A DNA stretch of 64,000 nt from Roseibacillus sp. (GCA_051251855.1 JBPOGI010000006.1:96001-160000), one strand, 5' to 3'. Numbered from the stretch's first letter, positions 4,022 through 41,127 are shown. The notes: generated by a model not told the origin, from the letters alone. Numbers and translations: made by a program.

Positions 4022-6141
4022 GGTTTGGGAGTGGTGATGGTAAGGCTGGTTTGGTCGACATAGCCTATGTCACCTTTGAGCGAGCTGTTTGTGAATTGAA
4101 GCTCTGACCCGATCCAGGCGGTGCCTTTCGGAATTTTTCCGGTGAAGTTCACTTGCTCCCACGTTCCTGGGTTTCCATCAAGCACGATGCTCTTCGATTT
4201 TACGGGACCAGCTTGAGCGCCCCACCCTGTGGTGAAAAAGTGAATTGTCCAGCCGCCGGTGGCACCGCTTACTTTGGAGTTGAGCAAGGCTCTTAGGTTG
4301 AAGGTAGTGTCTCCAGTGGCAATCTCTGAGGAGTATTCTGCCAAGTTCGTGATTTGAATCGCTTGAGAATGGCTGCCTCCAGTGGCGATGAGTCCGAACA
4401 TTTTTGAGCCAAGGGGATTGATGGAATCAGTCGATTGCGAGAATCTTCCTCGTTCAGCACCCCACTTTCGAGGGTTCACTGAGAAGTCGTCCACGACTCC
4501 GCCGAAAGAGGGAAGACTTGATTGGAGCTCGAAGTCGGGATTGGAGAGTAAGTTTGCACTCGTTGTCGTCTGACTGGGGGTGGCATCCACAGCAATATCG
4601 GTGACCGCTGTTGCTGCTTCTACTGCTTCGGACTCAGTAGCTTCAGCGGGCTCTTTGTGGCTGAATCCTGAGTCTTCAGTTTCACCGACATTGCTCGTGG
4701 GGTGGCTAGGAGAGGGGGTGTCCGAAAGGGCGACCCAGATTCCCGCAGGAATTCCGGCAGCAACGGCTGTGGTGAGTGCTATTTTTTTTAATCGATTTGG
4801 CTTAGGTTTTGCAGGAGTTGGATTGGGCTGGTTGTTAGAGGGAGGTTTTGATTCGGGGTGCGGGTCTTCGTCTGGTCCAAGATGGCCGTGGGGCTTGCCA
4901 TCTTGGGTAAGGTAAACGGAGAGGGGGTCTCCACTTACAGGATGGGGAGCGGTGAATTCTTTGACCGGCCAATAAGGTAAAACAGCTGCCGCAGATGGCT
5001 GCCAAACGAGATTCTTCGTATTAGGGGTGAGGTCTGAGGGTTGAAACTTGGCAGTGGTTCCATCAGGCAATGAGACTGGCTCTTGCGAAGCTTGTTGAGA
5101 GTCTTGTTGGGTAGGAAGGATCGGGGTTTGCCAGTCTTCTAACAGTGAGACTTCTCGCAGGGCCAGTGTCTGGGCATCTAGCATGGCCCAGGCTCCCTTG
5201 GGCGCTTTGGGATCTTGAGGGATAAGTGGGACGAGGTAGAAGTCGTCGCGAGAGTCTTCGGGGTCTTTGACGAGAATCGGATCGCCTGCGCGTGCGTTGA
5301 CGAGGGCTTGGTCCCACTCCGGTGGCGAGTCTTCGCGCCCAGTGAGACCAGAGTCCCGCACGGCGGCTAGGGCGGCTTCGCCTGCATTTTCGAGCGCGTT
5401 GGCAACTGGTGCACCAACGGCTCCGACTCCAGCAACCATGGAGGCTGGTAGTCGGGCCGCTGCTCCCTGGGTTCCTTCGGGAATGAGGGCAATAGCCCCT
5501 TTACCTTCCCAGTCCAATGAGCCCTGCAGGCCGCGATGGCTGAGTAGTTCCTCCATCGTAAAGAATCGTTCGTTGACCTTTCCGGTGCGCTTGTTTTCCT
5601 TGGAGTCGGTAGCTTCCAAACAAGAGCAGGGTGAGTTGCAATGCGTGATGGTAGGCTCATCGGGGAAAATGGAGAGACCGTAGAATCGAGGCATACCGGC
5701 CCAGGCGGGGTCGCGCATGAGGAGCCCAGAGGGAGAACCGTCTTCTTTCTTAAGAAAGCCAAAGGCAACTACCCAGTGCATCCCGCGATTGATCATGATC
5801 ATACAAGGCTGACCTTGACCTGCGATGGCTTCCAAAATGGCCTCTGCTACGGGAGCGGATTCTGTTTGGTAGACTTTCTCCCATTGTGTTGCTCCGTCAG
5901 CGTGATTGTTGATGAGGCTGAGGAGACTTTCGGCGGGGGATTTGATGGGTCGTTTGTCGGAAGCCTGCTTGGCATGGCTTCTGATTTCTCGAAAGAAGTC
6001 GTTTTGGGCAAAAACGGGAGGTGATTTTTTACTGCCTGCAAAGTCCACGACCATTAGGGCGCAGGCGGGTCCGCAGTAGCCGTTGAAGTCTTGTAAATGG
6101 CGAGGGACGTCGATACGGATTGCGTGTTGTTCGTTGCTCAT
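4018..6141 (-). CDS. papain-like (C39-like) cysteine peptidase domain protein with TM helix and C-terminal beta-rich (CBM-like) domain
   Basis: Q..GYCGPAC, HWVV, LMRDP triad pattern; hydrophobic segment; NLLSNPDFE at the start of the C-terminal domain. Confidence 0.6.
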   Translation of the reverse strand: MSNEQHAIRIDVPRHLQDFNGYCGPACALMVVDFAGSKKSPPVFAQNDFFREIRSHAKQASDKRPIKSPAESLLSLINNHADGATQWEKVYQTESAPVAEAILEAIAGQGQPCMIMINRGMHWVVAFGFLKKEDGSPSGLLMRDPAWAGMPRFYGLSIFPDEPTITHCNSPCSCLEATDSKENKRTGKVNERFFTMEELLSHRGLQGSLDWEGKGAIALIPEGTQGAAARLPASMVAGVGAVGAPVANALENAGEAALAAVRDSGLTGREDSPPEWDQALVNARAGDPILVKDPEDSRDDFYLVPLIPQDPKAPKGAWAMLDAQTLALREVSLLEDWQTPILPTQQDSQQASQEPVSLPDGTTAKFQPSDLTPNTKNLVWQPSAAAVLPYWPVKEFTAPHPVSGDPLSVYLTQDGKPHGHLGPDEDPHPESKPPSNNQPNPTPAKPKPNRLKKIALTTAVAAGIPAGIWVALSDTPSPSHPTSNVGETEDSGFSHKEPAEATESEAVEAATAVTDIAVDATPSQTTTSANLLSNPDFELQSSLPSFGGVVDDFSVNPRKWGAERGRFSQSTDSINPLGSKMFGLIATGGSHSQAIQITNLAEYSSEIATGDTTFNLRALLNSKVSGATGGWTIHFFTTGWGAQAGPVKSKSIVLDGNPGTWEQVNFTGKIPKGTAWIGSELQFTNSSLKGDIGYVDQTSLTITTPKP

Positions 6142-15044: not shown

Positions 15045-16114
15045 AACCTGATACCGGAGCCCTCGTTCGAGCCATTGTCTATAGTGTGGCTTTAGTTTAC
15101 TTGTTCGTGGACTTGTTCGTTCTCAAAGGGCCGCTCTATCGAAGTGTGAAAGATGCCAATCCTCGCAGTGAGAAAGTGATTGCTGAGGAAACGGCGCGCG
15201 GAGTGGCGGCACGGGTCCGTTACCAGCCGATTCTCCTCACTCAAATCGACCGTGCGGTGGAAAAGCGGCTGTGGTCTCGTGGTAAAAGCGCGACAGGTTT
15301 GGAGGGAGAGCAGCTCAAGCAAGAACGTATGGCGGCGCTGAACGAGATGTTTCAGAAGCACCTCTTACGCATCAAGGTGAGGTTCAATGCGGCAGAGTTT
15401 CAGGTGAGCGATGAGGAAGTGGCCGCCGCCGTAAAAACGTTCAAAAAACGCTTCGCTAACGAGCAACTTCTCAAGGGAGCGATTGTCAATCAGGGTTGGG
15501 ACGGGGAAGAAGAGTTGGTTGCGCGCATCCGAGCCAAGCTAGAGCAGGAAGCCTATTTGCGGAAATATGTCGCCGTCGAGGTGACTGAGGAAGAGCTCCA
15601 GGCATACTATCAAGAGCATCGAGCTCGTTTCGCTCTCCCGGAAAGAATCCGAGCGAGGCATATCTTTTTTGCGGCGTTGGAGCATCCTGGAGGGGCCGCC
15701 TTGGCTTTGGCTCAGTCGGTTCGAGATGCCTTGCGAGAAGGTCGTGATTTTAACGAACTATCCGCTGAATATAGTGAAGACCCGGCCACCAAGGAGAAGG
15801 GCGGAGAGCTCGGTTGGATGAGTCGAGGCCGAATGCCAGAGGGTTTAGGGGAACAAGTGTTTCAAATGCAGCCTGGGGCGACGGAGGTTTTGGAGTCTGA
15901 TGTGGGGGCTCATGTATTCGAAGTTCAAGAGCGCAAGCCAGCACGCGAGCGAAGTTTCGAAGAGGTCAAAGATGAACTCGAAGAGGCGTTGTCGAATCAG
16001 CGGCGGGAAGAAGGAACGCAACAATACCTGCGAATTCTTCATCATCGTGATGCCAAAGAACTCGAGATATTTACCGAAGTTCTTGAGCGTCCATGGAGTC
16101 TAACAGATTCTTGA
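15041..16114 (+). CDS. parvulin/PpiC-type peptidylprolyl isomerase (SurA/PrsA-like)
   Basis: ARHIFF, YSEDPATKEKGGELGW; N-terminal TM. Confidence 0.85.
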   Translation: MKPDTGALVRAIVYSVALVYLFVDLFVLKGPLYRSVKDANPRSEKVIAEETARGVAARVRYQPILLTQIDRAVEKRLWSRGKSATGLEGEQLKQERMAALNEMFQKHLLRIKVRFNAAEFQVSDEEVAAAVKTFKKRFANEQLLKGAIVNQGWDGEEELVARIRAKLEQEAYLRKYVAVEVTEEELQAYYQEHRARFALPERIRARHIFFAALEHPGGAALALAQSVRDALREGRDFNELSAEYSEDPATKEKGGELGWMSRGRMPEGLGEQVFQMQPGATEVLESDVGAHVFEVQERKPARERSFEEVKDELEEALSNQRREEGTQQYLRILHHRDAKELEIFTEVLERPWSLTDS

Positions 16115-16183
16115 TGCTGGGGTGAGGGGGTGGCATCTCAAGGCAATGATTTTTTCTTAAGACAAAAAAGATGAAGAAAGGGG

Positions 16184-16210
16184 TTGACCCAAATCATATT
16201 AATCTATAAC
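16184..16210 (+). promoter_or_regulatory. candidate sigma70 promoter of the RNA locus
   Basis: TTGACC-N15-TATAAC; spacer is short. Confidence 0.4.
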
Positions 16211-16265
16211 TCTTCTCGAACGCCGCCGCAGGAGCGGTCAAACCAGAAGGAGGGAATTTTCCATC

Positions 16266-16493
16266 ATGAACGATTTAAGCCATATCAAAACCAACTCGCT
16301 CGCAGCGGCCCAAGTGCACTGTTATCGCGGGATGTCCGGTTCGTTGATTGGCGGCATAGATGGCCTCCGGATTCAACCGACAGGGAATGCAAATGCGTTG
16401 AGTGCAAGACTCAGCTGGGAGAATGGCTCCAAAGGGATGCCCGCATTTGGTACCGAACTGAGCGAGAATAAACTGGCAAGCAGGATTACGTAA
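16266..16493 (+). CDS. putative leader peptide (uORF) of attenuator
   Basis: AGGAGG upstream; last codons and stop lie inside the antiterminator stem. Confidence 0.55.
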   Translation: MNDLSHIKTNSLAAAQVHCYRGMSGSLIGGIDGLRIQPTGNANALSARLSWENGSKGMPAFGTELSENKLASRIT

Positions 16494-16552
16494 ATCACTG
16501 ATTCATAAGGATTTTTACGGCCCTGCTTCCCCCACGGAGGCAGGGCCTTTTT
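16475..16552 (+). promoter_or_regulatory. transcription attenuator (antiterminator + intrinsic terminator)
   Basis: Terminator GGCCCTGCTTCC/GGAGGCAGGGCC-TTTTT (16519-16552); competing stem AAGCAGG..CGTAA (16478-16493) pairs with TTACG..CCTGCTT (16515-16528). Confidence 0.7.
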
Positions 16553-16609
16553 GTATTTAACCATTTAGAAGAACCGAGAAATTGAAATAAGAACGAGAAA
16601 GGGAGAGCT

Positions 16610-17972
16610 CACCCAGGTTGTCGCAATTGCGATGACGACCTGCGATGCGCAGACCCTGAAAACGAATTTGAAAGACAGAACCTGAAAAAGAAGAACCGCC
16701 GCCAGCTGTAACTGGCGACGGCTCCGACAGCACCACCGGACGGAATCCGATGAATCAACTGCGCAAGATGATTCTATCTAAGATGATGTTTCGGTCAAGA
16801 AAGACTTAACTTCACAGATAAGTGAAGGCAGGGAATTCATGTGCTCATTTTCAGGCCCAAAAGGCTTGTTGGAAGATGTGCCAAAGGAAACATCGAAAGG
16901 TCCGCCGAGAAATCCCCGCGGCCACGGTTCGAGAGAACGGTGACGGTGTTTGTTCCTAGAAAATGAATGGAACAAGGACATTCCTGTCCTTGTTCTATTT
17001 TGGAAGGAGCAGGCCTTTGTGGTTTGCTCCTCTCCAAATCGAAGTTCTCTGGAGTTGGAGCACGTCTTACGTTGAGGCGTCGCATGCTCATGCTCACAGA
17101 GGATTTCGATTTGGAGTTATCTGAATGGCGGTCTGGCGTCATGAGATAGGCGTGTCGAAAGGCACGTAAAGGGGCAGCAACCCTGTCTGCCCGCCTTCTT
17201 CCCTTTGGGGAGAAGGACAACCAGACAAACCTAGTTCCAATGACTTCGCGGCCGGCAGCTGCGGAGTGATGCTGGAAGATGGGAGATGCTCCATTGCGGA
17301 CGGCAAGTGCTCAAGCAATGGTGGGTGTAGCAACCCACAGAGTCTTTACGCCAAACATCGACAGTTGAGAACGAAGGGGAGTCACCGAGTGCGAAGCTTA
17401 GCGGCCAAGAGCCCGGTGGCAGTCCAGTGGTGCGGGAAAGGAGACGAGTCTTTCAAACTCGAAACCTCTCCCTAGTCGCGAAGACCGTAACGTCTGTAGC
17501 AACGGACGGGACAAGAGGCGTGTGGAATTTTGTTGTTGAAAAGGCAACGGACCCACCGGACGCACGCGTCTCATAGAAGGGTATCGGATAGTACGAGAGG
17601 AAATCCACCAGACTTTAGATCTGTTCCAAACGCAAAGATGCGTCCTTGATTGTGTGAAAATGGCTTAAGCCCTGACCAAATTTTGGAATCAGGGTCTGAC
17701 GGGACTCGCAAGGTCCCCGAGGATTGATGGAATGCCGCACGGTGGAGTAGCTCTCCTTCATGGCCCAGCCGGGTCGACGGTAGGTTGAACATCGAGAAGC
17801 ACAGTCAGAAGGGAGTGCCGCCACTTCCTCACCAAAGGCAGTCAGGTAGGAATACAAAGGGTGGGCCTCTAGCGCCCTCCTTTGTGGAAGACTTGGGAAG
17901 GTGAGCCGTCGCTGGCTCGCGATAATCCAAGGCGAGTTCCTATGTGCGAGGGTGTCCTTCTCAACCCTTGCT
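16610..17972 (+). ncRNA. large structured ncRNA, GOLLD-like (boundaries approximate; may be more than one RNA)
   Basis: No credible ORF over ~1.3 kb; dense hairpins with G-U pairs and GNRA-type loops; lies immediately 5' of a tRNA array. Confidence 0.6.
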
Positions 17973-17991
17973 ATCTATTTTCTAACAATGT

Positions 17992-18067
17992 GGGAGCGCA
18001 TGTGCCAGAGGGGCGATGCTGCCTTGCAAGCAGCGTGTGGCGGGTGCAAGTCCCGTCACCTCCACCA
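17992..18067 (+). tRNA. tRNA-Ala(TGC), atypical
   Basis: GCTGC-CTTGCAA-GCAGC; G3:U70; T-loop TGCAAGT; ACCA; two acceptor mismatches. Confidence 0.75.
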
Positions 18068-18075
18068 ATTTTTCT

Positions 18076-18151
18076 AGCGGGGAGAGTGTTGGTATCTCAA
18101 GAGGGTCTCATACGCCCTCGTCCGTGGGTTCGATTCCCACCTCCGCAACCA
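18076..18151 (+). tRNA. tRNA-Met(CAT), initiator-like (1:72 mismatch)
   Basis: AGGGT-CTCATAC-GCCCT; GTGGG-TTCGATT-CCCAC; ACCA. Confidence 0.8.
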
Positions 18152-18160
18152 TTTCTAAGG

Positions 18161-18234
18161 GGCGCGCAAACATTATGGTGATGTGCCTGACCTCCAATCA
18201 GGAAAACGGAGTTCGAGTCTCCGGCGTGCTACCA
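18161..18234 (+). tRNA. tRNA with TCC anticodon (Gly-like; C33 and A73 atypical, identity uncertain)
   Basis: GGCGCGC/GCGTGCT acceptor; CCTGA-CCTCCAA-TCAGG; TTCGAGT; ACCA. Confidence 0.65.
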
Positions 18235-18244
18235 ATTTTTCAAA

Positions 18245-18318
18245 GGTCCATTGATGTAAAAGTAGCCTCCCTGTCTGTCGAACAGGTTGAGCCGGAGCAT
18301 TACCGGCATGGACCGCCA
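18245..18318 (+). tRNA. tRNA-Asp(GTC), atypical T-loop
   Basis: GGTCCAT/ATGGACC; CCTGT-CTGTCGA-ACAGG; GCCGG-AGCATTA-CCGGC; GCCA. Confidence 0.8.
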
Positions 18319-18327
18319 TTTTCAAGT

Positions 18328-18404
18328 GGGGACCATGGTGTAACGAGTAAGCATCCGGCACTGTGAACGCCGCGGAATGGGTGCAAGTCCCATTGGTCCC
18401 CCCA
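18328..18404 (+). tRNA. tRNA-His(GTG)
   Basis: G-1:C73; loop CTGTGAA; T-loop TGCAAGT; CCA. Confidence 0.85.
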
Positions 18405-18415
18405 ACTTTTGGAAA

Positions 18416-18491
18416 TGTCCTCGACGGAGCTAGTGAACCGGACGGTTTGCAAAACCGATCATGCGGGGGGCGGAACCCCGGAGGACATCCA
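18416..18491 (+). tRNA. tRNA-Cys(GCA), atypical T-loop
   Basis: TGTCCTC/GAGGACA, U73, CCA; CGGT-TTGCAAA-ACCG; T-loop GGCGGAA. Confidence 0.75.
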
Positions 18492-18502
18492 TCTTTCTAA
18501 AT

Positions 18503-18575
18503 TCCAGCGTGGCGGAAAATCGCGCCGCTCTTGTAAAGCGGATGATGCAGGCAACCAGTCCTGTCGCTGGATCCA
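18503..18575 (+). tRNA. tRNA-Thr(TGT), atypical
   Basis: TCCAGCG/CGCTGGA; CCGCT-CTTGTAA-AGCGG; 8-nt T-loop CAACCAGT; TCCA. Confidence 0.7.
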
Positions 18576-18585
18576 ATTTGACAAT

Positions 18586-18660
18586 TCTTCTGTCGTCCAA
18601 AGGCGAGGACACCAGGCTACGAACCTGGAGATGCGAGTTCGAGTCTCGCCGGAAGTACCA
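18586..18660 (+). tRNA. tRNA-Arg(ACG)
   Basis: CCAGG-CTACGAA-CCTGG; GCGAG-TTCGAGT-CTCGC; ACCA. Confidence 0.85.
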
Positions 18661-18673
18661 TTCTCATGAGAAC

Positions 18674-18747
18674 GCGGGCTTGGTGTAAAAGAAGCACATC
18701 TGTTTTACATGCAGATCGAGGGGGTGCGATACCTCCAGCCCGTACCA
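18674..18747 (+). tRNA. tRNA-Val(TAC)
   Basis: GCGGGCT/AGCCCGT; TCTGT-TTTACAT-GCAGA; T-loop TGCGATA; ACCA. Confidence 0.8.
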
Positions 18748-18753
18748 ACTTTC

Positions 18754-18841
18754 ACGAAGTGTTCCCACCACGGTCTTCTAAGCCGTCGACGATAAACTGT
18801 GGGCAGGATGTCGAGGGGTTCGAGTCCTCCACTTCGTTCCA
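18754..18841 (+). tRNA. tRNA-like RNA with TCT (Arg) anticodon: no D arm, 8/4 acceptor/T stems, large variable region
   Basis: ACGAAGTG/CACTTCGT-T-CCA; ACGGT-CTTCTAA-GCCGT begins only 8 nt after the acceptor; GGGG-TTCGAGT-CCTC. Confidence 0.65.
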
Positions 18842-18846
18842 TTTTT

Positions 18847-18919
18847 GCCTGCGTAGCCCAACGGAAGAGGCGCCCGGCTTAGAACCGGTTCAGTGTGGGT
18901 TCGACTCCCTCCGCAGGTA
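18847..18919 (+). tRNA. tRNA-Leu(TAG), short variable loop, CCA not encoded
   Basis: GCCTGCG/CGCAGGT; CCGG-CTTAGAA-CCGG; TTCGACT. Confidence 0.8.
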
Positions 18920-18928
18920 CTTTTCTAA

Positions 18929-19002
18929 TTCCATGTAGCCCAACTGGTAGAGGCTCTCGACTTAAGATCGAGCAAGTGTCAGTTCGACTCTGACCATGGA
19001 AA
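18929..19002 (+). tRNA. tRNA-Leu(TAA), short variable loop, CCA not encoded
   Basis: TTCCATG/CATGGAA; CTCGA-CTTAAGA-TCGAG; GTCAG-TTCGACT-CTGAC. Confidence 0.8.
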
Positions 19003-19008
19003 TTTTCA

Positions 19009-19098
19009 GGAGTTCGAACCGGACAAGCGAGCCGGTCGCGTTTGCTAAACGCTGAGTTGCCATTTGGTAAAGGGGTGCAAGTCCTCCGAGCTCCGCCG
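19009..19098 (+). tRNA. tRNA-Ser(GCT), 8/4-type
   Basis: GGAGTTCG/CGAGCTCC, G73; GCGT-TTGCTAA-ACGC; long variable arm; 4-bp T stem; ends CCG. Confidence 0.75.
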
Positions 19099-19105
19099 TT
19101 TTTTA

Positions 19106-19193
19106 GGAGGGTGCCGCTAAGTGGCTGGCAACTGGTCTTGAAAACCAGGGTAGGCATTGCGTCCTAGGGGTTCGATTCCTCCACCCTCCGCCA
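19106..19193 (+). tRNA. tRNA-Ser(TGA), 8/4-type
   Basis: GGAGGGTG/CACCCTCC-GCCA; CTGGT-CTTGAAA-ACCAG; long variable arm; GGGG-TTCGATT-CCTC. Confidence 0.85.
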
Positions 19194-19196
19194 ATC

Positions 19197-19271
19197 ATCC
19201 CAGTCGTCTAATTGGTAAGACGCCCCGCGCCGAGCGGGGAGATGCCGCTTCGAAGTCGGCCGGGGAATCCC
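19197..19271 (+). tRNA. degenerate tRNA-Arg(CCG)-like
   Basis: Canonical D arm GTCT-AATTGGTA-AGAC; CCCCG-CGCCGAG-CGGGG (G33); weak acceptor; ends TCCC. Confidence 0.55.
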
Positions 19272-19277
19272 TTTTCT

Positions 19278-19352
19278 GGGTCTGTAGCTCAATTGGTAGA
19301 GCAACCGGTTTTTACCCGGTCGATGCGGGTTCGAGACCCGACAGACCCACCA
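19278..19352 (+). tRNA. tRNA-Lys(TTT)
   Basis: GGGTCTG/CAGACCC-ACCA; ACCGG-TTTTTAC-CCGGT; TTCGAGA. Confidence 0.9.
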
Positions 19353-19361
19353 ATTTTCAAC

Positions 19362-19517
19362 GCTCCTGTCAGCTATGGGTAGGCTTTCGCACTTTCACTG
19401 CGGCAAACCGGGTTCGAATGCATTTCTTGGTTACAAGACATTCTGAACATCCAGCTCGGGGCGAGCTGCATACCGCATGGACCTGAAGGATGAAGGTCAA
19501 TCCCGGCAGGAGTACCA
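19362..19517 (+). tRNA. tRNA-Glu(TTC) interrupted by an 82-nt insert in the T-loop
   Basis: GCTCCTG...TCGCA-CTTTCAC-TGCGG...CCGGG-TTCGAAT [19420-19501] CCCGG-CAGGAGT-ACCA. Confidence 0.8.
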
Positions 19518-19524
19518 ATTTTCT

Positions 19525-19599
19525 CGGGGGGTAGTTCAATGGGAGAACGCGCGCTTTGGAAGCGTGAGGTTGTCGGTTTGAGTCCGGCTCCCCCGACCA
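19525..19599 (+). tRNA. tRNA-Pro(TGG)
   Basis: CGGGGGG/TCCCCCG-ACCA; loop TTTGGAA; T-loop TTTGAGT. Confidence 0.85.
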
Positions 19600-19607
19600 C
19601 TTTTAAT

Positions 19608-19768
19608 TCCCGGATAGCTTAATCGGCAGAGCACTCGACTTTGACTCGAGCAGTGTGGGTTCGATTGCCCTCGCTCCGCTCATGCCATGCGATGTCCAGT
19701 TTCCTCCTCCGGAAACTGAGAAATTCGATGCGCATAAATGTGCGGAAGCATTCCCACTCCGGGCACCA
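19608..19768 (+). tRNA. tRNA-Gln(TTG) interrupted by an 86-nt insert in the T-loop
   Basis: TCCCGGA...CTCGA-CTTTGAC-TCGAG...GTGGG-TTCGATT [19667-19752] CCCAC-TCCGGGC-ACCA. Confidence 0.8.
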
Positions 19769-19789
19769 ATTTTAACCAAACATGAAACA

Positions 19790-20383
19790 ATGATAACACT
19801 AGTAAAAGCGAAAGACCTTCGCCCCATCTTGGAGACGGAACGTCTTCTCTTGCGTCCCCTTGAAATGAACGATGCTGCCGACGTGCGTCGCCTAGTCGGT
19901 GATATTCGTGTGGCCGAAAATCTAGGGCTTGTTCCGCATCCCTATCCAGAGGGACTGGCGGAAGAATGGATTTCTGGTCAGAGAGCAGAATATGAAGCGG
20001 GTAGGCATCTCACTTTTGCGATTACTACCAAAGCAACTAACGAACTGATGGGAGTAATCAGCCTTCATCCCAAAGAAGATCTTCTTCGCGCGTCAGTTGG
20101 TTACTGGGTTGGCGTTCCCTATTGGGGAAACGGCTACACCACGGAGGCTCTCAAGGAGATGCTCCGATTTGGCTTTGACGACTTTGCCCTGCAAAGAATC
20201 TTCGCTACTCACTTTGTCACCAATCCTGCTTCGGGCCGGGTGATGGAGAAAGTGGGGATGCAGCTCGAAGGCGTGATGAAGCTGGGTATCTCAAGATTTG
20301 GGGTGCTGCGCGACAGTATGCAGCGAGCGATCATCAAACCCGATTGGGAACGCCAGCGACAGGCGGAAGAACTTTACTGCTAG
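19790..20383 (+). CDS. GNAT N-acetyltransferase, RimJ/RimL family
   Basis: LETERLLLRP, VGYWVGVPYWGNGYTTEAL, NPASGRVMEKVGM; start moved to ATG 19790 because the longer ORF overlaps tRNA-Gln. Confidence 0.9.
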   Translation: MITLVKAKDLRPILETERLLLRPLEMNDAADVRRLVGDIRVAENLGLVPHPYPEGLAEEWISGQRAEYEAGRHLTFAITTKATNELMGVISLHPKEDLLRASVGYWVGVPYWGNGYTTEALKEMLRFGFDDFALQRIFATHFVTNPASGRVMEKVGMQLEGVMKLGISRFGVLRDSMQRAIIKPDWERQRQAEELYC

Positions 20384-20455
20384 ACCGTGTCGTGTGTGAA
20401 AGCGGCGGGTGGGCACTTTGCCAGCCCACTCGCCGCAAACCCATTTAACTTACCA

Positions 20456-21220
20456 ATGAATAAAAATAGAAATGAGCAGAGGCGTTTGAAATCAGAACGT
20501 CTGGAAACGCGAGACAAAGTGATTCTTGCCCTTGAACGAGAGCGCCGAGATTTGTGGAACCAGCTCCGGAAAGCTCCTTTGGAAGAACTGAAGGAGCCTT
20601 ATCAAAAAGGCTGGGAGCGGTTCTTTGTTCTCAGCGAGCAGGCGAAGCGGAGAAAGGATGCCGAGAAGCTAGAATTGGCCCTTTCCCTTATTCGGAATTA
20701 TCAGCGCTGTTCCGTGAATCCATTTCGACACTATCGCTACAAGAGCAAGCGCATGGTGCCATGGGAGCACAATTTGAGTGGATTAAGAGCGAGAGCTTTT
20801 CTATCTCAACGGACTTCCGAGGAGGTCATGCAATACTTTCGAGTGCGTCTGCGTGAGCCTTTGACTCGAGAGCGAGTTCGAGAATTGGTTCGTTCAGGTT
20901 GGCAGGGAAAATTTTGGTTCCGCTACCCTGAGTATGCGGTTTCTCAAGTGCAGCCATTTATGATCACACACTGCCGCGTAGCTTTGCCCGAGGTGGAGAG
21001 CCGCTTGTCTGAAGTAGAGGCGACCCTTCGAAAAGATGGTAACGAATATCGGCTTCGCCATCTCAAGGATTGGGGCTTTAGCTGTTGGCGTCGGATGGAT
21101 GAAAGGGCTCAAGAAATGAAGGAGGTGCCGCTGATTCGGAGAGAGATTGAAGAAGCGATCTTTGACTTCGAAAGTAAGCAGGAGCCTAGCTACTGGTGTC
21201 CCGTTCTTTTTCTCAATTGA
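20456..21220 (+). CDS. basic hypothetical protein
   Basis: Arg/Lys-rich ORF in the operon; LKEPYQKGWERFFVL motif. Confidence 0.75.
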   Translation: MNKNRNEQRRLKSERLETRDKVILALERERRDLWNQLRKAPLEELKEPYQKGWERFFVLSEQAKRRKDAEKLELALSLIRNYQRCSVNPFRHYRYKSKRMVPWEHNLSGLRARAFLSQRTSEEVMQYFRVRLREPLTRERVRELVRSGWQGKFWFRYPEYAVSQVQPFMITHCRVALPEVESRLSEVEATLRKDGNEYRLRHLKDWGFSCWRRMDERAQEMKEVPLIRREIEEAIFDFESKQEPSYWCPVLFLN

Positions 21221-21542
21221 AGGAGAACGCGACGTCAGTGGCTGCGCTGTGAGTTGCAATACCACGCTTTAAACTAGGAACAAACACCAGGGGATTTCGG
21301 CGGAGCTTTCGATGGGTTCTTTGACTCTGAAACGAGCAGTAGAAAACCCAAGAAATGCAGAAGAGAGCAGCATCAGTGAGAAGAAGAATCCGGCATTTAC
21401 TGGAGAAGAAAGAGAAGCAGAAAAAGAAGATTCAACCCGAGTCTCCCCGCGAGAAAACCGACTATGAACAATCGCCAGTGAATCAAATCACGGTGAGGAC
21501 GATAGAGGGTTTTTGGGGACAGCAATAAGAAGAGAAAAAGAG

Positions 21543-22142
21543 ATGAACACCGTAATGAATAAGAGCGTCGTGCTCGTGCTAAACAGGCACTGGCAAGCCG
21601 TCAATGTCACCACCCCCGCGGAGGCCTTTGCTTCCATGATGACCGATGCCGCGACAGGCTTGGATATTCGAGGGGAAGACTGGATGGTTCCGGTGAAGTG
21701 GCAGGATTGGGTCCAGTTGTCTGTTCGAGAAGGAGACTTCTCGGTAGGGACGGTGGACGGTCAGGTGCGCGTTCCGACGGTGATTGTCTTGAGTCGTTTT
21801 GACCGAGTGCCGCGCAAGCGCCTCAGTTTCTCTTTGCGTGGTCTTTGGCTGCGGGATGGGGGACGGTGTCAATATACCGGACGTTCTCTCCGGCCAGAGG
21901 AAGGCAATATCGACCACGTCATTCCTCGCTCGCGCGGGGGAGAGACTTCTTGGGAGAACTGCGTGCTTTCTGACCGCAAGGTGAACAACCGGAAAGCAGA
22001 CCGGACCCCGGAAGAAGCGGGCTTACGCCTGAATTCCGATCCGGTGCGTCCTCCGGAAGTGCCCGTCACCTATTTGCTGCGGAATCCGTTCCAAATTGCA
22101 GATTGGGAGGTCTTCCTCCCTGAACGCTCGGAAGAAAATTGA
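21543..22142 (+). CDS. HNH endonuclease
   Basis: VLVLN, RDGGRCQYTG, NIDHVIPRSRGG..SWENCV....VNNRK. Confidence 0.92.
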   Translation: MNTVMNKSVVLVLNRHWQAVNVTTPAEAFASMMTDAATGLDIRGEDWMVPVKWQDWVQLSVREGDFSVGTVDGQVRVPTVIVLSRFDRVPRKRLSFSLRGLWLRDGGRCQYTGRSLRPEEGNIDHVIPRSRGGETSWENCVLSDRKVNNRKADRTPEEAGLRLNSDPVRPPEVPVTYLLRNPFQIADWEVFLPERSEEN

Positions 22143-22329: not shown

Positions 22330-22430
22330 GTCAGCTCGAACTTGGCCCAGCGAATCACGCCGCTCCTCAGTCCCGAATGTTTCCGGATGAGTGACGCGAT
22401 GATTCCCGCCGGGAAAGAGTGGAGTGGGGG
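22303..22430 (+). ncRNA. unidentified ~130-nt structured RNA
   Basis: Closing stem CCCC..CGCTCCA/TGGAGTG-GGGG; GATTGC-TTCG-GCAGTC hairpin; AATCA-CGC/GCG-A-TGATT stem. Confidence 0.45.
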
Positions 22431-22469
22431 AGGCTTACAAATTTAACCCCAAAGAAAGAAAAAGAAGAA

Positions 22470-23237
22470 ATGAATGAATGGATGATCGTAGCAGTGGTTG
22501 TCGCAGTGGCGGCCGCTCTTGGAATGGTGAAAGTGATCCTAGGCAACCGCCAGAAGGTGATCGTGAATAGTTTTGAGAAGGCCCTCATGTTCTACAATGG
22601 CAAGTTGGTGAAAGAGCTGGAAGCGGGTGAGACCGTTTTCTGGGGTCAAGGATACGAAGTGAAACGTGTCGATGGCCGTTGGCAGGAGTTGGTGGTGCAA
22701 AGCCAAGAATTCCTGACCGCCGACCGAGCTTCCGTGAAGGTGAGCGGAGTGGTGCGTTTTCGCGTGGCGGATGCGCTGAAGTATTTCGGCGAATCCCAAG
22801 CGCCTCTCGTGACCGTTCATACCGCGACTCAGATGGCACTGCGTGATGTGGTGGGAAGTCTGGGCGTGGAAGCGGTGCTGGAGCGTCAAGACGGTCTCGG
22901 TGATCGAATGAAGGCTCTGGTTGCGGCCCCAGCGGAAGCTCTTGGAATCGAAGTCAACGCTGTCGTGGCGCGTGACCTGATGCTCGCCGGTGACCTGAAG
23001 AAGGCCTACCAGGCGACTTTGAGCGCGAAACAAGAAGCTCTCGCAGGACTTGAAAAGGCCCGTGGCGAGGCGGCTGCTATACGTGTGAAAGCGAATGCTG
23101 CCCGGGTTTACGAAAAGAACCCTGCCTTGCTGCAACTCGAAGCTCTCGAGACCGTGGCGAAGCTGGGGGACGGAATGAACAACCATCTGGTGCTTGGATC
23201 ACTCGATTCCTTGCTGAAGATGGTGAAAACTGAATGA
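22470..23237 (+). CDS. SPFH/band-7 (slipin-like) membrane protein
   Basis: N-terminal TM; QEFLTADR, QMALRDVVG, LEKARGEAAAIR..ANAARV..NPALLQL. Confidence 0.88.
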   Translation: MNEWMIVAVVVAVAAALGMVKVILGNRQKVIVNSFEKALMFYNGKLVKELEAGETVFWGQGYEVKRVDGRWQELVVQSQEFLTADRASVKVSGVVRFRVADALKYFGESQAPLVTVHTATQMALRDVVGSLGVEAVLERQDGLGDRMKALVAAPAEALGIEVNAVVARDLMLAGDLKKAYQATLSAKQEALAGLEKARGEAAAIRVKANAARVYEKNPALLQLEALETVAKLGDGMNNHLVLGSLDSLLKMVKTE

Positions 23238-40020: not shown

Positions 40021-41127
40021 TTAGCCAATCCCTACTCGTAGATCCCTCAAACTCCAGAGTTGATCCTTTGCCGCTGAAGCCGCACCTCGCATCTGCCGAG
40101 CTCCATCTTTACGTTTTTCCGGAAATCTCTCTCGGGCCGCCGCAAACGTATCGTCGACAAACGTCTTACTGCCAATCACTGCTCCATCCGTGAAATATCG
40201 CACCCGGCATCTCAGCATCCCGGCCATCCCAAGATCTGGCAACACGGTCTCATTGTCTTTGGATTCCAGCATTTCGGCCTCATTTTTTGAAACTCCCGTC
40301 TTGCCTGTTGTTTGAGCGTTGAGTTTTGAAGTTTTTCTCCCCAGCGCCAAGCCCATCGCCCTGCGGTAAATCCGTGAAACCCTCTTCCATTGTGTGGCAA
40401 GGTCTTCTGTGTCTTGCTCGGAGTATTGGTAACTTCCCGAATCGCACACCCTCACCAAGCCCGCTCTTGCTCGCTTCCCGTTGCTCTTTTTTCCACCACC
40501 CACAGCCTCACCGTAGCTGCTCCAACGATACTCCGCCGGATCTTTCACCATTCCTGCTCGCACTGGATTGAGATCAATATACGCCGCCATCGTCCGAGCT
40601 GCTGTCCCGCTCTCCACGATTACGCTCTTGAAACGATCTTCCCACAGCCCGCCCTTGCGCTTGTGAAGCCCATTGAACCACTGGGTGAAACGCTGCATCA
40701 AACCTTTCATGAACTCCCCTAAGTCATGCATCCGGTAGTCGAAGCGCTCCTTGATCTCAGTCACACGCTCAGGATTTCCTCCTTCAATACCGCCTTCATG
40801 GCGAGCCGCATCCAATTGCGCCGCTACATCCGCCACGAAAGATTCCCCGTAAAGCGCAGAAAGCCTCACCAAGAACTCGCCGTTTGAGATGCCATCCTTC
40901 GGCTTCGGCGGTACCTCCAACAAGATGTGAATGTGGTTACACATCAGGCAGTAGGATAGGACTCGACAGCCTGTAAACTTCTCCATCATCCGCATCAACA
41001 TGCGGAAATGCTCCTTTTCCTCTGCCCCGAAGGCGAACCGCCTCTCCACCACCCTGCTAACACAGTGATAAATGGCCGGTTTTGTCTCCGAATCCTTCCA
41101 GGGGGCAATCCAACGTGCGCGTCTCAT
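40021..41127 (-). mobile_element. REP-associated tyrosine transposase (RAYT / Y1 HUH)
   Basis: YHCVSRVV, LSYCLMCNHIHILL, LWEDRFKS, YIDLNPVRAG, YRWSSY. Confidence 0.88.

Follow-up and report, generated by a model that had tools for sequence, protein, structure and literature searches.

Two tRNA genes at the 3' end of a tRNA array in Roseibacillus sp., tRNA-Glu(UUC) and tRNA-Gln(UUG), are each interrupted in the T-loop by a short insert. Both inserts are very probably copies of a small, non-autonomous mobile DNA element that disrupts redundant genes of a GOLLD-linked array. The two inserts belong to one repeat family, they lie in opposite orientations, they are polymorphic among relatives, and members of the family also occupy sites that are not tRNA genes; the two split genes are themselves redundant in the genome. 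Most likely the array copies of tRNA-Glu and tRNA-Gln are simply inactivated and their transcripts are not repaired. The first-pass annotation of the window (the whole stretch of 64,000 nucleotides that was analysed) had proposed a new class of bacterial tRNA intron. This proposal is not supported, since the same element is found in both orientations and also at non-tRNA sites, including a protein-coding gene. A false lead is removed in this way: short, structured, exactly excisable inserts near RtcB look like introns, yet they are in all likelihood insertions of a mobile element. The family has unusual traits, namely a preference for tRNA-loop DNA, the lack of real inverted repeats, covarying stems and conserved loops, and on these grounds it is either a candidate mobile small RNA or a candidate for hairpin-guided transposition.

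The split genes and their empty counterparts

The interrupted genes with their 82- and 86-nt T-loop inserts are confirmed. ARAGORN reports 10 tRNAs in the 64-kb window, all between 18076 and 19599, and misses both split genes as they stand, while the Rfam tRNA model matches only the 5' part of the Gln gene (19611-19678, model positions 4-67). In practice tRNA finders miss interrupted genes of this kind. When the inserts are excised in silico, ARAGORN calls a tRNA-Glu(ttc) and a 75-nt tRNA-Gln(ttg), which bears out the earlier claim that precise removal gives canonical tRNAs. The 3-nt ambiguity of the junctions (AAT, ATT) is real, and so is the plan that the inserts were said to share, which on folding comprises a GC start, a central hairpin and a 3' hairpin. 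The plan is shared because both inserts are copies of one nearly symmetrical element read in opposite directions.

Table 1. Positions of the split tRNA genes, their inserts and the neighbouring features, counted from the first letter of the window
Feature	Position	Strand	Basis or remark
GOLLD-like RNA, directly upstream of tRNA array	17513..17967	+	Rfam RF02032
tRNA array, ~19 tRNA or tRNA-like genes	17988..19768	+	10 by ARAGORN, the rest by eye
tRNA-Glu(TTC), whole split gene	19362..19517		
tRNA-Glu(UUC), 5' part through T-loop	19362..19419	+	T-loop TTCGAAT at 19413-19419
Insert in tRNA-Glu, 82 nt	19420..19501	-	element copy antisense to the tRNA; boundaries can be shifted by 3 nt (19417-19498)
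tRNA-Glu, 3' part: T-stem 3' strand (CCCGG), acceptor strand, ACCA	19502..19517	+	sequence reading, excision test
tRNA-Pro(UGG), uninterrupted, between the two split genes	19525..19599	+	ARAGORN
tRNA-Gln(TTG), whole split gene	19608..19768		
tRNA-Gln(UUG), 5' part through T-loop	19608..19666	+	T-loop TTCGATT at 19660-19666
Insert in tRNA-Gln, 86 nt	19667..19752	+	element copy sense to the tRNA; R1 108 bits, R2 86.7 bits
tRNA-Gln, 3' part	19753..19768	+	sequence reading, excision test
GNAT acetyltransferase, first gene of array-linked module	19784..20383	+	Pfam Acetyltransf_3, E 3e-32
277-aa protein of no known family	20387..21220	+	no match in Pfam, NCBIfam, PHROGs, Atlas
HNH endonuclease	21513..22142	+	Pfam HNH_4 and HNH; phrog_16726, E 1e-24
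SPFH/Band 7 protein	22419..23237	+	Pfam Band_7, E 1e-20
RtcB-family RNA ligase, phage type	23303..24877	+	Pfam RtcB, E 8e-36; phrog_1075, E 1e-76

The array was compared by BLAST with 61 genomes, namely the source genome (G000) and 60 relatives, and homologous arrays are present in genomes of the same genus. Uninterrupted Glu(ttc) and Gln(ttg) genes are called by ARAGORN in the arrays of G008, G004 and G002. Alignments of the split genes with these orthologues contain single gaps of exactly the insert lengths, and therefore the split genes are not a chance observation. Metagenome contigs bridge the same sites. In a contig from run X7, position 19417 is joined to 19501 with one letter between, and the 146 letters upstream, which are the shorter side, are identical; run X8 has a similar Glu joint with a shorter side of 24 letters. 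For the Gln gene, a contig from run X5 joins 19664 to 19753 with two letters between and a shorter side of 33 letters. The intron reading is not supported here either, as the inserts are absent from the same-genus Glu and Gln orthologues and from the bridging contigs. The insertions into the array Glu and Gln genes look recent.

Both genes have intact counterparts in the source genome. It holds 50 tRNAs called by ARAGORN, 10 of which are in the array, and intact Glu(ttc) and Gln(ttg) genes lie elsewhere, at C1:1076770 and C6:203577. The array copies are therefore spare, and the insertions are tolerated because these housekeeping genes are intact.

Members and structure of the repeat family

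A script seeking insert-split T-arms found three more split tRNA genes in the array of G002, for Met(CAT), Arg(ACG) and Ser(TGA), with inserts of 79-85 nt that are plainly homologous to the Gln insert. A covariance model (R1) was built from the Gln insert and these three, and a broader model (R2) from 37 copies. Of the genomes of the bacterial family that were searched (151), 52 have matches to R1 at E<=0.01; they represent 11 of 20 genera, and a single genome has up to 12 matches. With R2 the source genome has six copies, of which the array, C6 and C1 have two each, so that several related short copies exist both within this genome and across genomes. The elements are about 80-120 nt long, have three hairpins and are non-coding. 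When one genome per species was scanned with a sequence pattern, 80 loci were obtained, 20 of which contain a total of 24 R1 matches. Of these 20 loci, 17 score at least 24 bits; 16 of the 17 have names from Verrucomicrobiota (Akkermansiaceae, Luteolibacter, Haloferula, Chthoniobacteraceae/-ales and Verrucomicrobiae) and one is from an unnamed bacterium. The pattern matches outside Verrucomicrobiota were rejected as chance matches in coding DNA, and in scans of viral contigs the two element patterns used produced either no match or two matches, both attributed to chance and located in coding DNA.

The members have diverged to the point that simple searches do not join them. BLAST of both inserts within the source genome returned only the inserts themselves; its other copies are too diverged to be visible to BLAST, and a covariance model was therefore needed. 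When the Glu insert was compared by BLAST with 150 genomes of the family, the matches did not exceed chance level. Metagenome pattern scans for the Glu insert gave 0 and then 99 matches, and none of the 80 that were checked shared more than the pattern. It was placed in the family only once R2 had been built. A search of the full-text literature and Rfam, with IS catalogues such as ISfinder outside its scope, found no description of short bacterial T-loop inserts or of this repeat, and the repeat family in Verrucomicrobiota is apparently undescribed.

The element opens with P1, a stem of 3-4 bp around a conserved CGCTCCGCTC-type loop, which is followed by CATGCGG. Next comes P2, an 8-bp hairpin with a conserved CCTCCTCC loop, and then P3, a variable hairpin, and a tail ending GC(A/G)TT. 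The 5' hairpin starts at the first base and the 3' hairpin stops a few bases before the terminus. Terminal inverted repeats of at least 10 bp are absent from the alignments, and the ends share only GCC...GGC. Covariation in the inserts, which the first-pass annotation had named as a check, is strong in the stems across the family. Among 37 copies, standard pairs fill 93% of cells compared with 61% in shuffles, both-sided changes occur at 15 of 16 pairs, and the observed covariation score was reached by none of 500 shuffles. The alignment of these copies was fitted to P2 and P3 and not to P1, and P1 still covaries. Wobble pairs (17 G-T and 9 A-C, biased by the orientation of the model) were considered as a guide to the strand of function and are too weak to use.

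Small non-autonomous bacterial elements of the MITE type include Correia/NEMIS, RUP and ERIC-like repeats. The element resembles them in being about 100 bp long, non-coding, present in several copies per genome, folded into hairpins and polymorphic between strains, as well as in its very short junction repeat and its insertion into both genes and intergenic DNA. Unlike MITEs, it has only the GCC...GGC ends and no long terminal inverted repeats, and no parent IS was found. It differs also in having two conserved loops on stems that covary across genera and a strong preference for tRNA-loop DNA. The conservation of the loops and the covariation exceed what a passive MITE needs, and they hint that the element functions either as an RNA or as single-stranded DNA in folded form.

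Orientation, target sequence and insertion sites

A minus-strand match of R2 to the Glu insert spans 19413-19505 (31.3 bits, E ~3e-8 for the 4 kb searched), and the alignment covers GGGAUUG, P1, CCAUGCGG, P2, P3 and GCAUUCGAA. On the plus strand the Glu insert gave no match to R2 at E<=1, and the backward reading of the Gln insert reached only 10.1 bits. It follows that both inserts belong to one element family and that they face opposite ways relative to their tRNAs. The orientation in the host tRNA is not fixed as sense, being antisense in Glu and sense in Gln, and an intron defined by its RNA fold should not work in both directions. The orientation follows the strand of the T-loop DNA that reads GATT^C. 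The sense strand does so in Gln (TTCGATT-CC), and also in the Met and Ser genes of G002, and the antisense strand does so in Glu (TTCGAAT-CC, read as GGGATT^CGAA). Eight of nine array copies are in sense orientation. This bias is attributed to the target sequence, although a splice-dependent element would show it too. Over 72 distinct copies, TT lies just 5' of the element in 65, the element ends in TT followed by C in 45, and the reverse complement of a tRNA 3' end lies to the left of the element in 20; these flank positions are part of the model, and the counts are biased that way. The presence of TT at both junctions fits either a 2-bp duplication or a TT-ending element that inserts after TT.

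Empty sites that lack exactly the element are seen alongside filled ones for Glu, for Gln and for an IS110-family insertion sequence in G162. That genome has six identical copies of the insertion sequence (L177-L182), of which five are uninterrupted and one carries the element. All five empty sites read ..CTGGGAACTTC.., and the filled copy has the element in the transposase reading frame, antisense, with AA/TT on both sides. The filled copy differs from the empty ones solely by the element and an additional AA, which is TT on the strand of the element, and in this within-genome comparison TT was present before the insertion. The IS110 gene beside one copy had been considered as a partner and proved to be a target. 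In three of four cross-genome comparisons of filled and empty sites, the empty allele has no TT. Empty Gln alleles have GC or TC where the filled site has TT, two insertion sites in tRNA-Gly of G004 are CT in the source genome, and empty Glu alleles have AAT in G004 and AGT in the metagenome contigs. These loop positions are variable, and the ancestors may have differed there; the alternative is a conversion of the flank upon insertion. The GATT^C target rule therefore assumes polymorphic ancestors.

Other insertion sites vary. The G002 array has three sites in T-loops and one in a T-arm, and further copies lie in tRNA 3'-end fragments and in intergenic DNA. In G004, a tRNA-Gly(TCC) gene (L018, 5018-5260, minus strand) has a clear copy in the anticodon loop, where it splits the anticodon between positions 34 and 35, and a second, weaker member of the family in its T-loop (14.8 bits, E 0.02). 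Another short element, which has long inverted ends (GGAGCAAGGACATTCCTGTCCTTG...), is present twice between tRNA genes of the same locus, at ~5590-5690 and 5250-5326 on the minus strand; long tRNA arrays seem to collect small mobile elements. Of 37 R1 matches examined, a junction-spanning tRNA is restored by excision only for four array genes and for one tRNA-Pro(CGG), which lies outside an array (L049, G117) and has the element in its T-loop and an intact 5' part. Beside this gene L049 has a second tRNA-Pro(CGG), intact except for a masked run of N in its T-loop (1281-1369), and a masked run occurs also in L035 (G138).

These sites bear on whether the inserts could be kept in the mature RNA. 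In that case the hairpins would form an additional protruding arm, and the products would be tRNA-like RNAs with a working or regulatory role that might be connected with GOLLD. Positions 59 and 60 of tRNA point away from the elbow core and may be tolerant, and both inserts do lie at the 3' edge of the T-loop with intact exons and separate hairpins. However, the split of the G004 anticodon at 34/35 would be intolerable, the lack of inserts in close relatives speaks against a conserved role at these sites, and two orientations would give complementary and different RNAs. Retention of the inserts is considered extremely improbable.

Copies beside housekeeping tRNA genes have a different form. 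They are antisense and lie 60-100 nt downstream of an intact tRNA. Five of six tested are bounded by direct repeats of 17-70 bp (L084, L094, L095, L096 and C1:6699-6971 of the source genome), and the sixth has a doubtful 15-nt repeat. The repeats hold the tRNA 3' end from the T-loop onward together with the downstream flank. A further conserved segment, about 50 nt long and with a GGGTTCTCRTCCC motif, accompanies these copies. By eye the segment resembles the anticodon-to-T-stem part of tRNA-Pro; an origin as a decayed duplicate of the neighbouring tRNA was rejected, with alignment z-scores of -1.3 to 2.7. At C6:83700-84700 of the source genome, a putative integrase gene recognised by eye precedes a tandem series of tRNA 3'-end fragments with terminators, in which one fragment has a full copy of the element and another a truncated one.

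The integrases of some genomic islands cross over in the tRNA T-loop, and the copies beside housekeeping tRNAs look like site-specific integration at the T-loop, yet no integrase was found in 54 flanking reading frames around 26 copies. The likeness to T-loop genomic islands lies in the T-loop target and in the flanking direct repeats of the tRNA 3' end; the differences are a unit of only 100-150 bp, the lack of an integrase, and array copies without a duplicated tRNA end. It may be suggested that a tyrosine integrase moves a miniature integrative element into T-loops and that the present element, rather than being a transposon, is its recombination end, with the array copies as a minimal form. 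The direct repeats give the classic attL/attR picture, the extra segment accompanies these copies, and one copy in the source genome adjoins the putative integrase gene. Set against this, the array copies and the IS110 insertion have only TT in place of such repeats, no integrase turned up in the flanks scanned, and each tRNA has repeats of its own, to which a mobile attP could not correspond. Such an origin is quite unlikely. In a weaker form of the mobile-RNA reading given further below, the long form beside housekeeping tRNAs would be a new miniature T-loop-integrating element that duplicates the tRNA 3' end. The first-pass annotation had offered scars of T-loop-targeting integrative elements as its alternative. 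The targeting of the T-loop at the DNA level comes close to the evidence, but the copies are intact small mobile elements and not scars of large ones.

For the preferred reading, a small non-autonomous mobile element, a course of insertion can be proposed. The element, non-coding and of ~80-120 bp as it occurs in this bacterial family and in other Verrucomicrobiota, would insert after TT and before C, with GATT^C as the preferred context, leaving TT at both junctions. The T-arm DNA (GGTTCGAWTCC) is nearly palindromic and would present the target on one strand or the other, which would account for both inserts lying at the end of the T-loop and pointing opposite ways. As a guess, movement would depend on a trans-acting enzyme that recognises the terminal hairpins, either of the HUH type or of a recombinase type with a TT core. 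A 3' hairpin near the terminus and TT junctions recall hairpin-guided HUH elements or dinucleotide-core recombinases. The nearest systems for comparison are the palindrome-associated elements derived from IS200/IS605 and REP/RAYT. The element is like them in its hairpins near the ends, the absence of inverted repeats, the fixed short 5' flank, the set orientation relative to the target strand and the 3' hairpin a few bases from the end. It is unlike IS200/IS605-derived elements in that its 5' hairpin begins at the first base and that none of the eight Y1_Tnp genes of the source genome adjoins a copy as an autonomous partner. No IS110-type transposase was found in the source genome, and no partner transposase or recombinase emerged from the pattern matches. 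The eight genes with a Y1 (IS200-like) transposase domain include one in the window (40903-41073, minus strand), and four of the eight are unusually long (382-427 aa) with the domain N-terminal.

The array setting and the fate of the transcripts

The array is preceded by a match to GOLLD (RF02032) that spans the full model (1-416) with 116.3 bits and E 6e-31. The score is below the gathering score of 150, and the RNA is probably a divergent member of GOLLD. GOLLD-homologous stretches also precede related arrays in G004, G018 and G034. Most array genes end in CCA, which is followed by an ATTTTC-type spacer. Long tRNA arrays (L-arrays) with HNH and RtcB neighbours have been published, and in Anabaena such arrays are induced by translation inhibitors (PMC8421152). 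Clusters of tRNA genes that are linked to GOLLD and have HNH have also been published (PMC6582537). By the features given in the available text of PMC8421152, namely a CCA-encoding run that duplicates housekeeping isoacceptors with HNH and RtcB nearby, the present array is an L-array. It shares with those described in these excerpts the long CCA-encoding array duplicating isoacceptors, the HNH and RtcB flank and the GOLLD upstream, and it differs in its T-loop inserts, of which none is reported for long arrays in the available text of either paper (PMC8421152, PMC6582537).

The genes downstream of the array recur in relatives. The GNAT gene is conserved in G004, G008, G002 and G034. By tblastn, GNAT, the 277-aa protein and HNH are found in G004, G008 and G002, SPFH and RtcB in G004 and G002, and HNH and RtcB also in G005 and G033. 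SPFH and RtcB were not found in G008, where the contig ends ~3 kb below the stretch searched. Beside related arrays, HNH is present at 6 of 9 loci searched and RtcB at 4 of 9. R1 has no match in the G008 genome (342 bases were outside the search). As judged from these comparisons, the GNAT-unknown-HNH-SPFH-RtcB module is kept beside related arrays whichever tRNAs carry inserts. The 277-aa protein is conserved between GNAT and HNH beside related arrays in four other genomes.

The presence of RtcB is one reason why the inserts had been read as introns. It was suggested that HNH cutting or self-cleavage is followed by ligation by RtcB, so that the inserts would be true intervening sequences. Both junctions would be cut by a self-cleaving fold or an endonuclease, the exons would be held by the tRNA body and joined by RtcB, and the result would be IStron-like. 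In favour of this, exact excision gives back canonical tRNAs, the RtcB gene is located 3.5 kb downstream, sense orientation prevails among the array copies (eight of nine), the stems covary and the loops are conserved. The inserts are also like archaeal non-canonical tRNA introns in part, being short inserts in the T-loop region with exact removal restoring the tRNA and RtcB in the genome. Both interrupted genes keep perfect exons, and the recency of insertion explains this equally well.

No known splicing system was recognised, however. The scan of the inserts for Rfam ribozymes that had been called for returned no ribozyme or intron family in 16000-22000 at E<=1. Group I and group II introns have a catalytic core that is recognised by covariance models and are >200 nt in size, compared with the 82 and 86 nt of the inserts. 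An EndA-type endonuclease (PF01974) has no match in the source genome, which is 95% complete, while in control genomes matches were obtained in four archaea. Reading of the junctions reveals no bulge-helix-bulge; they pair as a plain helix of 6-7 bp (GAWTGC with GCAWTC) without 3-nt bulges. Unlike archaeal protein-spliced introns, which these tests address, the inserts occur in both orientations and have copies outside tRNAs. The Glu copy is antisense to its own tRNA, and the family is found antisense in a transposase gene as well as in intergenic DNA. The HNH-RtcB module is not tied to the inserts. The tRNAs that can be restored are almost all dispensable array genes, and an orthologous insert-bearing tRNA in G034 has, by eye, lost its anticodon arm. 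Removal of the inserts by cleavage and RtcB ligation is not supported, and true intervening sequences are very unlikely.

A related possibility combines mobility with RNA repair. The element could be a mobile gene for a small structured RNA that homes to the DNA of tRNA T-loops and anticodon loops, with sense copies being excised from array transcripts and the tRNA halves joined again by the RtcB of the array module. On its covarying stems this RNA would have two C-rich loops that are nearly invariant, one of them resembling an anti-Shine-Dalgarno sequence. This possibility is judged quite unlikely. If it were true, the element would be an IStron-like harmless transposon without a group I ribozyme. 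IStrons, as described in the available text of PMC4227781, are likewise DNA transposons that are in principle removable from RNA, which makes their insertions harmless, but they are far larger and have a group I ribozyme and an IS gene, while no ribozyme signature is present here.

The array itself has further unusual members. Between 17988 and 19270 of the window, about nine tRNA-like units missed by ARAGORN were recognised by eye. Among them are genes that resemble Asp(GTC), Cys(GCA) and Thr(TGT) and have non-canonical T-loops, as well as one that resembles Ser(GCT) and lacks CCA; the units may be degenerate or specialised tRNAs. A long variable arm is expected in bacterial tRNA-Leu. The leucine anticodons TAG and TAA occur here in 74-nt tRNAs at 18847-18920 and 18929-19002 that do not have this arm, and similar short tRNAs with leucine anticodons are present in the array of G008.
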